Assembly (NCBI GenBank): GCA_934140005.1
Contig: CAKPBB010000006.1
Span: 2,604 to 66,603, forward strand
Length of the DNA stretch: 64,000 bases
Reading direction: 5' to 3'
Origin: an uncultured Clostridia bacterium
GTDB lineage: Bacteria; Bacillota; Clostridia; TANB77; CAG-508
Below, piece by piece: positions 15,883 through 60,986 of this stretch. The translations under genes and the position numbers were made by a program. A model generated the notes under the pieces. The model ran no database searches. It was given only the letters and a program-made list of their open reading frames with translations, and had not been told where the DNA came from. Within the stretch, counting starts at the first letter, position 1, and each line of letters opens with the position of its first letter.

Positions 15883-15958
15883 TGGCTCCTCGTGTAGGAC
15901 TTGAACCTACGACATTTCGGTTAACAGCCGAACGCTCTACCGACTGAGCTAACGAGGA
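15883..15958 (-). tRNA. tRNA-Asn (anticodon GTT), CCA encoded
   Basis: Minus-strand read TCCTCGTTAGCTCAGTCGGTAGAGC...GGCTGTTAACCG...GGTTCAAGTCC...ACGAGGAGCCA. Cloverleaf with a CT-GTT-AA anticodon loop. Confidence 0.9.
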
Positions 15959-23624: not shown

Positions 23625-23650
23625 AAATTGTTGAAATATTGCATCTGATA

Positions 23651-23787
23651 AAATTATATAATATATGTTTTGAAATACCGCGTAAGCGACCAAACGAACA
23701 AAGTGAGTGCGAATGGAGCAATCTTCATATAAAATAAAAATAGAAGATTGCGACACCAAGGTATAGAAAACATATATTATATAATTT
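23651..23787 (+). repeat. Copy 1 of a three-copy ~135-nt intergenic element (putative structured RNA)
   Basis: Perfect 21-bp closing stem (23651-23671 with 23767-23787), a conserved 59-nt core GAAATACCGCGTAAGCGACC...ATCTTCATAT, and inner hairpin GCAATCTTC/GAAGATTGC. Confidence 0.9.
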
Positions 23788-23813
23788 TAATGTAATAACT
23801 TTAGTAATTTTGC

Positions 23814-36158: not shown

Positions 36159-36232
36159 TGGCAGGGGTGGAAAGAATCGAACTCTCATCAGGAGTTTTGG
36201 AGACTCTTATTCTACCATTGAACTACACCCCT
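36159..36232 (-). tRNA. tRNA-Trp (anticodon CCA), CCA encoded
   Basis: Minus-strand read AGGGGTGTAGTTCAATGGTAGAAT...CT-CCA-AA...GGTTCGATTC...CACCCCTGCCA. Confidence 0.9.
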
Positions 36233-55633: not shown

Positions 55634-56566
55634 ATGGTTTATATTGATTTTTTAGAAAATGAAGAAGAACTTTCTTTTTATAGTTTAAGAAAATATTGGA
55701 AAATTGTTAATAAGGTACGACTAATGTATTATAAAATTTTTAGAAAGGTAATTTCTACAAGTTTAGAAGATAAGACTGTTGTGTTATTGCCTAAACTAGA
55801 TAGTAGAAGTTTTAAAAAATTAGAACAGAAACTTTTACAAATGAATAGTAAAACAGTTTGCTTATCAAAGAAATTGGAAAATAATGATACATTGAAAGAT
55901 TTTTTGAATGAAAAAAATAAGGATATTTTAGATGGTAAATGGTTATTTTCTTATTTAGTTGAACACATTTTAGCATATATTGAAAAACAAACAGAGGAAA
56001 ATATTTCAGAACAGGAAATTGCAATTCTTACTAATGAAATAGATGAAAAGATAGCAGGTTGGATTATAAAATTAGCTTGTAAATATAAGAAGATAGAATT
56101 GATTACCAAAGAACCGTTGAAATTTAAGAAATTGGAAGAAAATTTGTATAATGAATATGGTATAGAATTAAATGTAACATATAATGAAAGAAAGAGTTTG
56201 AAAAATGCTGGTATTGTATTAAATTTTAATTTTGCAGAAGAGGCATTAAATAAATTTTCAATTAGCAAAAATGCAATAATCATAAATTTTGAACAAGAAA
56301 TTGCAATAGAGAATAGAAGCTTTAATGGAATTATTGTAAATGGTTATCACATACATTTGCCAACTAACTATTTTAAATATGTTATTCCATTTCAAAAATT
56401 TTCAAGTAATTTGATATATGAAAGTTTAATTTATAAAAAAACGAATTTTAATAATGTGTTGAAGCAAATTTTAGATGATAATGTAGAATTGCATTATTTA
56501 ATTGGAATAAGAGGCAAAATAAAGAATCAAGAGTTCAAAAGAAGAAAAAAACTACTGACAAATTAA
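55634..56566 (+). CDS. Hypothetical protein
   Basis: 310-aa ORF with an SD (GTGAGGAAA). No family recognised. Confidence 0.45.
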   Translation: MVYIDFLENEEELSFYSLRKYWKIVNKVRLMYYKIFRKVISTSLEDKTVVLLPKLDSRSFKKLEQKLLQMNSKTVCLSKKLENNDTLKDFLNEKNKDILDGKWLFSYLVEHILAYIEKQTEENISEQEIAILTNEIDEKIAGWIIKLACKYKKIELITKEPLKFKKLEENLYNEYGIELNVTYNERKSLKNAGIVLNFNFAEEALNKFSISKNAIIINFEQEIAIENRSFNGIIVNGYHIHLPTNYFKYVIPFQKFSSNLIYESLIYKKTNFNNVLKQILDDNVELHYLIGIRGKIKNQEFKRRKKLLTN

Positions 56567-56572
56567 ATTTTT

Positions 56573-56704
56573 AGAATAAATATATTGTTTTGAAATACCG
56601 CGTAAGCGACCAAACGAACAAAGTGAGTGCGAATGGAGCAATCTTCATATATTATAAAAAAGTAAGATTGCGACACCAAGGTATGAAAAACATATATTTA
56701 TTCT
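56573..56704 (+). repeat. Copy 2 of the three-copy intergenic element
   Basis: The 59-nt core is identical to copy 1. The closing stem (56573-56591 with 56687-56704) has one bulged T. The inner hairpin loop differs. Confidence 0.9.
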
Positions 56705-56806
56705 TATTTATAACTGAAATTTTTATTGCTGTAAATCTTGACAAATTAGAAAATAAACAGTATTATAGAATACAATGTAAGTAACAAATGAAAGGGGACT
56801 TATAAT

Positions 56807-60811: not shown

Positions 60812-60826
60812 AATATATTGATTAAA

Positions 60827-60963
60827 GTTTTATTATATATTATTTTGAAATACCGCGTAAGCGACCAAACGAACGAAAGTGAGTGCGAATGGAGCAATCT
60901 TCATATAATTATAAAAATAGAAGATTGCGACACCAAGGTATAAAAAATAATATATAATAAAAC
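60827..60963 (+). repeat. Copy 3 of the three-copy intergenic element
   Basis: Perfect 20-bp closing stem (60827-60846 with 60944-60963) whose sequence differs from copies 1 and 2. The core has one G insertion. Confidence 0.9.
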
Positions 60964-60986
60964 TAATATATATTTAGGAGGAAACT

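Follow-up and report, generated by a model that had tools for sequence, protein, structure and literature searches.

The element and its three copies

The stretch of DNA analysed here, called the window (64,000 nucleotides of contig CAKPBB010000006.1 from an uncultured Clostridia bacterium), carries three + strand copies of a foldback element in the gaps between fmt and asp23, between a gene of unknown function and greA, and between cdsA and a gene for an M50 protease (rseP-like), contexts that Pfam bears out. Each copy is a long hairpin with a branched head, with fold z-scores of -5 to -10, and all three run in the same direction as their neighbours. We read the copies as insertions of a previously undescribed family of small non-autonomous foldback transposons (MITEs, short for miniature inverted-repeat transposable elements) from uncultured, AT-rich gut Clostridia, a family whose structured core is under constraint, and give this reading a probability of roughly 0.8. 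An initial annotation of the window had presented the copies as a candidate structured RNA and kept a small non-autonomous MITE-like hairpin repeat as the alternative. It is the alternative that terminal repeats, target-site duplications and copy number now demonstrate. Coordinates below are those of the window.

23634..23805, + strand: copy 1, whole inserted block, ends uncertain by ~8 nt; decayed outer arms (AAATATTGCAT... / ...ATGTAATAACTTTAGT), inner arms and head; possible degenerate duplication AAATTGTTG (23625-23633) / AATTTTG (23806-23812)
23651..23787, + strand: copy 1, hairpin, perfect 21-bp closing stem plus head; cmsearch 122.9 bits
23675..23764, + strand: copy 1, head, a four-way junction with P1 (ATACC/GGTAT) as its boundary
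23679..23688, + strand: copy 1, P2, CGC-GUAA-GCG hairpin with a GNRA-type loop
23694..23708, + strand: copy 1, P3, pairs A-U, C-G, tandem G.A/A.G, R-Y, C-G
23714..23755, + strand: copy 1, P4, pairs U-A, G-C, tandem G.A/A.G, then GCAATCTTC/GAAGATTGC and a variable A/T loop
56574..56716, + strand: copy 2, element of 143 bp bracketed by direct repeats AAATTTTTA (56565-56573 and 56717-56725); cmsearch 127.2 bits
56573..56704, + strand: copy 2, hairpin, with the head at 56595-56684; DNA extra to empty sites spans 56566-56737 (~172 bp)
60820..60967, + strand: copy 3, element of 148 bp between direct repeats ATATATT (60813-60819 and 60968-60974); cmsearch 136.6 bits
60827..60963, + strand: copy 3, hairpin, with the head at 60850-60941; element ends GATTAAAGTTTTATT / (reverse complement) ATTAGTTTTATT

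Reading the sequence and aligning the copies confirmed their placement at 23651-23787, 56573-56704 and 60827-60963. When up to three mismatches were allowed, the three core segments matched only these sites in the window, and none in 100 dinucleotide-preserving shuffles. The anatomy first described for the element also stands in most respects. Copies 1 and 2 do not differ in the 59-nt 5' core, the one extra G of copy 3 falling within the P3 loop, and the 21-nt 3' core is the same in all three. The inner hairpin has an A/T loop specific to each copy and makes eight of nine pairs in copy 2, while the closing stem is perfect over 20-21 bp in copies 1 and 3, with differing sequences, and in copy 2 has a single bulge. 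Beside the core, the double change from G-C to A-U is genuine (family-wide, that pair is AU in 41 cases and GC in 27), and the CGC-GUAA-GCG hairpin is present in the core. GA dinucleotides do flank the inner hairpin, but the k-turn-like geometry proposed for them does not hold, since on inspection both tandem-GA motifs lack the required 3-nt bulge. Copies 1 and 2 show no difference over ~80 head positions and differ at about a quarter of the positions in the arms and P4 loop.

A dispersed family with the marks of transposition

The family was searched for with an exact 22-nt core pattern in which the GNRA positions were left free, 8-kb blocks serving as loci (L numbers below). At least 117 blocks matched, and the core was seen at least 120 times, in 49 metagenome-assembled genomes (MAGs) among the matches listed. 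These represent 49 distinct GTDB species, with up to 14 copies per MAG; they are labelled uncultured Clostridia, Eubacteriales or Clostridium sp. and come from the guts of human, chicken, rabbit and mouse. The core always occupies the apex of a foldback and mostly measures 85-105 nt, with further classes of 132-149 and 169-190 nt that have extra hairpins in the P4 apex. No copy of the family holds a gene. Of 107 copies, all but one lie between genes, as a rule 30-90 nt away from a stop codon, and the neighbouring genes vary and are unrelated across the loci of the 49 MAGs. An alignment of 71 short-form copies (A2) was analysed with RNAalifold and used for a covariance model (R1), with which cmsearch recovered 86 copies, 81 of them distinct, at E<1e-15, adding copies beyond the pattern matches.

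The full element is ~145-255 bp long, ~30% GC and non-coding, which keeps within the MITE size limit of ~300-500 bp. It has short terminal inverted repeats with the core TTAMAGTT, or GTTAC[A/T]NNTCAG in the best-preserved subfamily; the terminal-repeat core of the family is TTACAGTT, with GTTACAGTTCAG ... CTGAACTGTAAC as a terminal-repeat pair. The arms are complementary and specific to each subfamily, the inner stem is semi-conserved (..ATATATTGTTTT / AAAACAATATAT..), and in the arm alignment the inverted repeat often extends 35-75 nt outward. Many copies end in the common motif GTTAC[A/T]N[T/G]TCA[G/C], with paired termini 206-254 bp apart, and such GTTAC... termini lie at both ends of at least 12 copies. 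Directly outside the termini, 12 full-length copies have perfect, non-palindromic 8-bp direct repeats, for example GCAAATTA, TACTTTTT, TAAATTGG and CTAATTTT. Duplications of this kind in L087, L012, L032 and L093 were already visible on arm extension, and a related terminal-repeat flavour, TTYAAGTYTCGAC, likewise comes with duplications (L019, L113). Within the window, the target-site duplication measures 7 bp at copy 3 and 8-9 bp at copy 2, and degenerate terminal repeats are seen at copy 3 (TTAAAGTT) and at the right ends of copy 1 (CTAAAGTT) and copy 2 (CAGTT), those of copies 1 and 3 resembling the family core.

Its insertions fall in AT-rich intergenic DNA, usually 30-90 nt past a stop codon, and create a target-site duplication of ~8 bp; a DDE-type transposase provided in trans would presumably be needed.

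Empty sites in relatives

The distribution is that of a MITE as well, dispersed and multicopy, with filled and empty orthologous sites. For sites 2 and 3, 80 syntenic metagenome loci retrieved via Frr (66-94% identity) gave no cmsearch match to the element. At site 3, the distance from the cdsA stop codon to the rseP ribosome-binding site is ~10-25 nt in L118 (Frr 94% identical) and other relatives, and the window carries a 148-bp insert where these have a short junction. At site 2, the upstream stop codon abuts the greA promoter (CTTGACAAAT) in relatives; the greA promoter of the window, TTGACA-17-TATTAT at 56738-56766, lies downstream of copy 2. In relatives whose Asp23 is 91-95% identical, asp23 follows the fmt stop codon after only 66-82 nt, with a conserved asp23 promoter (ATTTTGCTTGCAC) close behind the stop, and R1 finds no element in these relatives. 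An identical Asp23 was read on 24 contigs, and the element is present in the three of these that were shown.

The initial annotation had also remarked that asp23, greA and rseP are stress or envelope related. This tie is not upheld: syntenic relatives lack the element at every one of the three sites, and the promoters of greA and asp23, which are found downstream of it in the window, are conserved in relatives without it and pre-date the insertions. The empty sites, together with termini that resemble the family repeat, argue that the link with stress and envelope genes is incidental, and the window insertions probably have no specific connection with asp23, greA or rseP. Copy 3, which sits within the cdsA-rseP operon between stop codon and ribosome-binding site, shows that the + orientation permits read-through of the operon.

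One relative with 83% identical Asp23 (L205:1800-2000) has a 200-nt gap between fmt and asp23 that contains no head; palindromes in this gap (CTGAGGCTGTAAC...AACAGCCTCAG) include GTTACAG-like words.

Fold and covariation of the head

The head, ~90 nt long, folds as a four-way junction of P1, P2, P3 and P4. RNAalifold on the 71 short-form copies yielded 35 pairs, 20 of which show compensatory changes. Of the cells in the R1 alignment (81 distinct sequences), 98.7% are paired, as compared with 27-46% when partners are slid by 1-3 columns; double changes occur in 22 of the 35 pairs, and the covarying parts are P3, P4 and the arms. The pairing and double-change values observed were reached in none of 500 shuffles. 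The claim of a conserved core with variable loops and compensated stems therefore extends from the window to the whole of this set, and the secondary structure is conserved with covariation as in a structured RNA family.

The individual helices differ in how much they vary. P1 (ATACC/GGTAT) has a compensated U-A to C-G change in one copy. The P2 loop is GTAA in all of ~120 copies, although the pattern admitted any GNRA. The R-Y pair of P3 is AU in 38 cases and GC in 37, and the P3 loop varies from 3 to 9 nt. The P4 stem is free in sequence (GCAATC/GATTGC, GCAAAC/GTTTGC, GCAACC/GGTTGC, GCGGTC/GACCGC, GTAATC/GATTAC), and its apex accepts insertions of up to ~100 nt in other copies. Little or no variation is seen in the junction strands or in either GA/GA motif. 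The GA/GA mismatches were never turned into Watson-Crick pairs, which argues against homogenisation of a DNA palindrome as the sole force at work. Direct repeats, GCGAC(AC)CAA, also lie inside the head. Two head variants (L042:3637-3730 and L044:7501-7596) have no P4 at all (GAGTGCGA|CACCAAGG); they look like deletions between GCGA(C) direct repeats within the head. Copy 1 itself varies within the species: its counterpart at L198:2789-2918 (window 23654-23785) scores 113 instead of 122.9 bits with cmsearch, has a C replaced by T in the J4/1 strand, which is otherwise conserved (CACCAAGG to CACTAAGG), and is also altered in the internal loop adjoining P1.

The view that the element belongs to no known RNA family was sustained: a scan of copy 1 against Rfam 15, even at E<=10, gives chance hits only (E>1). 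Neither the short nor the full-length form of the element has a BLAST match among plasmids or phages, and the exact core pattern has none among viral contigs. The core strings were not found in the papers searched, nor in 200 of the 408 supplementary files of Fremin & Bhatt 2021. A tRNA-like or SINE-like fold was rejected as the dimensions of junction and arms are unfit and no tRNA-model match overlaps the copies. Coding potential was discarded too: the small - strand open reading frames (ORFs) over copy 1 are disrupted by indels in the other copies, and head indels of 1-2 nt among copies (GATTGG/GAATTGG; ACACC/ACACAC) mean that no reading frame is conserved.

At the gathering threshold, Rfam 15 finds only two tRNAs in the whole window; the two tRNA genes are on the - strand, at 15886-15958 and 36162-36232. 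Over positions 1-64000, GC content is 26-27% and GC skew is strong, uniform and positive (+0.13 to +0.31), and ~77% of coding sequence is on the + strand; skew and coding strand are consistent with one replichore arm.

Constraint in place and modularity of the head

Unusually for a repeat of this kind, the head is better conserved than the terminal repeats. Across six cross-species orthologous pairs, which were ascertained via an intact 22-mer, a point of caution for the reading of a constrained core, the head differs at 6 of 447 positions (1.3%; 23 pattern-fixed nt excluded), as compared with ~9% in the arms and 7% in the outer, mostly coding flanks of the same pairs. Ascertainment through the 22-mer cannot account for the low divergence over the other ~70 nt. 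Changes in the arms between orthologues are compensated (C-G to G-C; C-G to T-A). On these comparisons, the head is evidently under purifying selection in situ.

The head has furthermore been found inside at least two unrelated terminal-repeat shells. Copies in L036 (123-257 and 2442-2573) have the four-way-junction head within other termini (GGGACATGGGGACG...), and L085:3593-3699 shares with L036 a foldback shell whose termini are rich in GGGAC words (TTGGGGACGTTTCTGTTTGGGACAT; ATTTGGGACATGGGGACGTAGATAATGTCCC), the L085 shell enclosing an unrelated interior. Conversely, a 234-bp foldback at L089:5963-6197 has a 31-nt terminal repeat in common with a head-bearing copy in L084, an unrelated, hairpin-forming interior and a near-perfect 8-bp duplication (ATAATAAT/ATACTAAT); an E-value scan of this element against Rfam returned chance matches of microRNA type only. 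Nested insertion into the apex of a hairpin was considered and rejected, since the arms are symmetric up to the head and there is no internal duplication.

A second repeat is present in MAGs of the MGYG-HGUT-00384 / UMGS1788 type. Its imperfect palindrome is GC-rich (GGGTCGnCnnGGAnGCCGACCC) and precedes CTACAAC(R)TYTGACAT, which makes the repeat REP-like (palindrome plus CTAC). Sites are L037:5040-5085, L076:75-110, L083 and L114:5100-5150, and the inside of the P4 loop in L009, L021 and L067; in many cases the repeat sits within the P4 apex of the foldback element or 20-35 nt upstream of it.

Interpretation and rival explanations

Mobility, a fold with covariation, and constraint are all demonstrated by these comparisons. 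Several observations nonetheless weigh against the reading of the copies as MITE insertions with a constrained core. The termini of the window copies are short or degenerate, and copy 1 has no clean duplication, only a degenerate candidate. In ~0.9 Mb of loci, neither an autonomous insertion sequence nor a transposase with matching ends came to light; terminal-repeat pairs 600-3500 bp apart and multicopy ORFs there proved to be noise and orthologues only, and a cognate insertion sequence was not found in plasmid or phage collections either. About three of seven bystander copies (those found without the exact pattern) are decayed, so maintenance of the element is not universal. Decay in place can be followed at one orthologous site (L011:918-1010 as compared with L043:5454-5592 and L090:808-946), where one species has deleted the 3' half of the element. 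Compensated palindromes, finally, may also stem from template switching at the DNA level. The initial annotation had reserved a pure DNA repeat for the case of many copies with duplications and no compensatory changes; the duplications are there, but compensatory changes are abundant.

Whether the constrained head acts as RNA is a separate matter, and here a number of findings speak against such a role. The reverse strand of the window copies folds equally well. For the head, fold energies are -22.8 kcal/mol on the + strand and -21.4 kcal/mol on the - strand, a difference of 1.4 that is not decisive. On the + strand, G-U pairs do not exceed A-C mismatches in number (158 and 221 overall; 18 and 34 in P4; 140 and 187 in the arms), the scoring treating the two alike, and sense, antisense and mixed classes all point this way, with no dependence on orientation. 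With respect to co-directional neighbours, the + strand is antisense in 47-48 cases and sense in 15-16 (~3:1), another 26-31 copies lying between genes that converge or diverge; MAGs with more antisense than sense copies number 26, and those with the reverse 8. The three window copies all have the minority, sense orientation. For 83 of the 107 copies, the + strand is the one with negative GC skew. Sites resembling promoters or terminators are no commoner than in shuffles, and the arms' -10-like words (TATATT, TAATAT), which occur mirrored on both strands, do not exceed shuffle expectation. No terminator-like site was seen in any of the three window gaps; with copy 3 inside an operon as well, an intrinsic terminator was rejected. 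The G-U strand signature and consistent orientation that would be looked for in a structured RNA were not found, nor did a promoter or terminator of its own stand out.

On the other side stand the cGUAAg loop, the two tandem G.A motifs and the slightly better energy of the + strand, all of which favour a folded + strand. Furthermore, since the terminal repeats are symmetric, a bias in orientation implies that the head affects fitness in a strand-specific way; with 8-kb loci it cannot be told whether the basis of this effect is transcription or replication. Most likely the head would be a folded + strand nucleic acid that is recognised by a protein or forms a tertiary fold. We tentatively place RNA first as its role, at somewhat less than even odds, and rate it above single-stranded DNA, which we consider improbable. 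A more specific version, which we regard as doubtful, gives the head an autonomous function as an RNA module, in a new class of ribozyme, small RNA or protein-binding RNA; its GNRA loop and tandem-GA motifs would build a compact junction, several unrelated MITE shells would have captured it, and selection at the level of the host would keep it at each place where it lands. Less likely than an RNA module, the head could be the recognition module of a structure-guided mobilisation system; this would explain variable termini beside an invariant head.

The main alternative, that the head is a cis-acting module required for mobilisation, is a contender to be taken seriously, although we do not favour it. 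Its fullest form is a purely selfish DNA repeat without RNA function: the head would be a binding, bending or enhancer site for the transposase or a host factor, kept only in mobilisation-competent lineages, and the compensated stems would arise from quasi-palindrome correction of the DNA. We hold this to be possible but not probable. It would fit the lack of a strand-specific wobble signature, the occurrence of both orientations with both strands folding equally, the nearly complete Watson-Crick pairing of the arms and the decay of several bystander copies, and the direct repeats GCGAC(AC)CAA of the head could bind a protein. Selection for mobility, however, cannot keep resident orthologues, yet their heads are ~99% identical while arms and genes diverge by 7-9%. 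Palindrome correction should moreover have removed the invariant G.A/A.G mismatches, which are still there. The terminal repeats of the L089 element function with an unrelated interior, so that the head is not obviously required for transposition, and a 3:1 orientation bias is unexpected in a symmetric DNA transposon unless the effect of the head is strand-specific.

An unlikely explanation is that the head is folded single-stranded DNA acting in replication or transposition, comparable to attC or to the subterminal hairpins of IS200/IS605, with the replication fork dictating its orientation. In DNA, too, sheared G.A pairs and GNRA-like loops are stable, orientation tracks GC skew (83/107), and the equal footing of G-U and A-C mismatches is what DNA predicts. 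Yet it is mostly the - strand, and not the + strand that bears the motifs, that lies on the lagging-strand template. Duplications of 8 bp and terminal repeats indicate a DDE mechanism on double-stranded DNA and not a single-strand HUH one, and the skew signal is inseparable from gene orientation in 8-kb loci.

That the copies are a resident gene for a structured RNA, or a cis-regulatory riboswitch, leader or 3' untranslated region element, functionally tied to asp23, greA and rseP is very improbable. Covariation and non-canonical motifs in the structure would suit it, as would the co-directional setting of all three window copies. Against it stand the empty sites in syntenic relatives (three of three), promoters of greA and asp23 that lie downstream and are conserved without the element, unrelated neighbours across 49 MAGs with mainly antisense orientation, and the very existence of duplications and terminal repeats; the sense position in a 5' untranslated region of recurring genes that marks riboswitches and leaders was not found. 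Least credible of all is an element of REP/REPIN type that a tyrosine HUH transposase, a RAYT, would mobilise, for although the element is palindromic, intergenic, multicopy and near gene 3' ends, it is 145-255 bp long and AT-rich with 8-bp duplications and long terminal repeats, its ends lack a conserved GTAG/CTAC tetranucleotide, and a separate REP-like repeat coexists in some of the MAGs.

Known systems and significance

REP elements measure 20-40 nt, are GC-rich, lack target-site duplications and depend on RAYT. The present family shares with REP, BIME and REPIN repeats a multicopy palindrome just 3' of genes and a stem whose structure is conserved over its sequence, and differs from them in length (145-255 bp), AT-richness and the possession of terminal repeats and duplications. 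The orphan structured RNAs that comparative genomics has revealed, as in the motif collections of Weinberg and Breaker, resemble the head in their multi-stem junction, covariation, GNRA loop and apical stems of variable length; the family is unlike them in being mobile, in occurring in both orientations and in having neither a G-U strand signature nor a match in Rfam 15.

The closest known kind is that of the small mobile structured repeats of Firmicutes, bcr1 above all. In the Bacillus cereus group, bcr1 is a transcribed repeat of ~155 bp, with 5-bp direct repeats at its flanks and a cruciform-like fold that compensatory changes maintain (Delihas 2011, PMC3184786). Like bcr1, the family described here is a small mobile intergenic repeat of Firmicutes with flanking direct repeats, patchy genomic distribution and a compensated fold (PMC3184786). 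It does not have the 5-bp repeats and two-stem fold of bcr1: the duplications are ~8 bp instead of 5 bp, and a four-way junction sits atop one long foldback, whereas bcr1 comprises two independent stem-loops. While bcr1 is transcribed, the present family is known from sequence, and it is by description that the two are set apart. Classical bacterial MITEs (Correia/NEMIS, RUP, BOX/SPRITE, Coxiella QMITE2) give long stem-loop transcripts (PMC10969869, PMC3184786), and QMITE2 of Coxiella has direct repeats of 7-9 bp. The family has their terminal inverted repeats, target-site duplications, AT-richness, intergenic location and lack of coding sequence. It departs from them in that an internal core, and not the terminal repeats, is best conserved, in that this core has non-canonical motifs of RNA type, is constrained in orthologues and occurs within different shells, and in that a parent insertion sequence was not found in the ~0.9 Mb of loci.

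To our knowledge, MITEs are the least studied mobile elements of bacteria, and AT-rich uncultured gut Clostridia are almost without characterised repeats. The family offers clean filled and empty sites for comparison, including an insertion inside an operon (cdsA-rseP). Three conserved intergenic copies with covariation are easily taken for a regulatory RNA, and the covariance model can sort these repeats from true riboswitch and small-RNA candidates in comparative screens. The head is a concrete candidate for whether bacterial MITEs carry and spread functional RNA or single-stranded DNA modules, a question that was left open for bcr1 (PMC3184786). Should the idea of an RNA module prove true, this would be a mobile structured RNA that has spread across at least 49 species of gut Clostridia.

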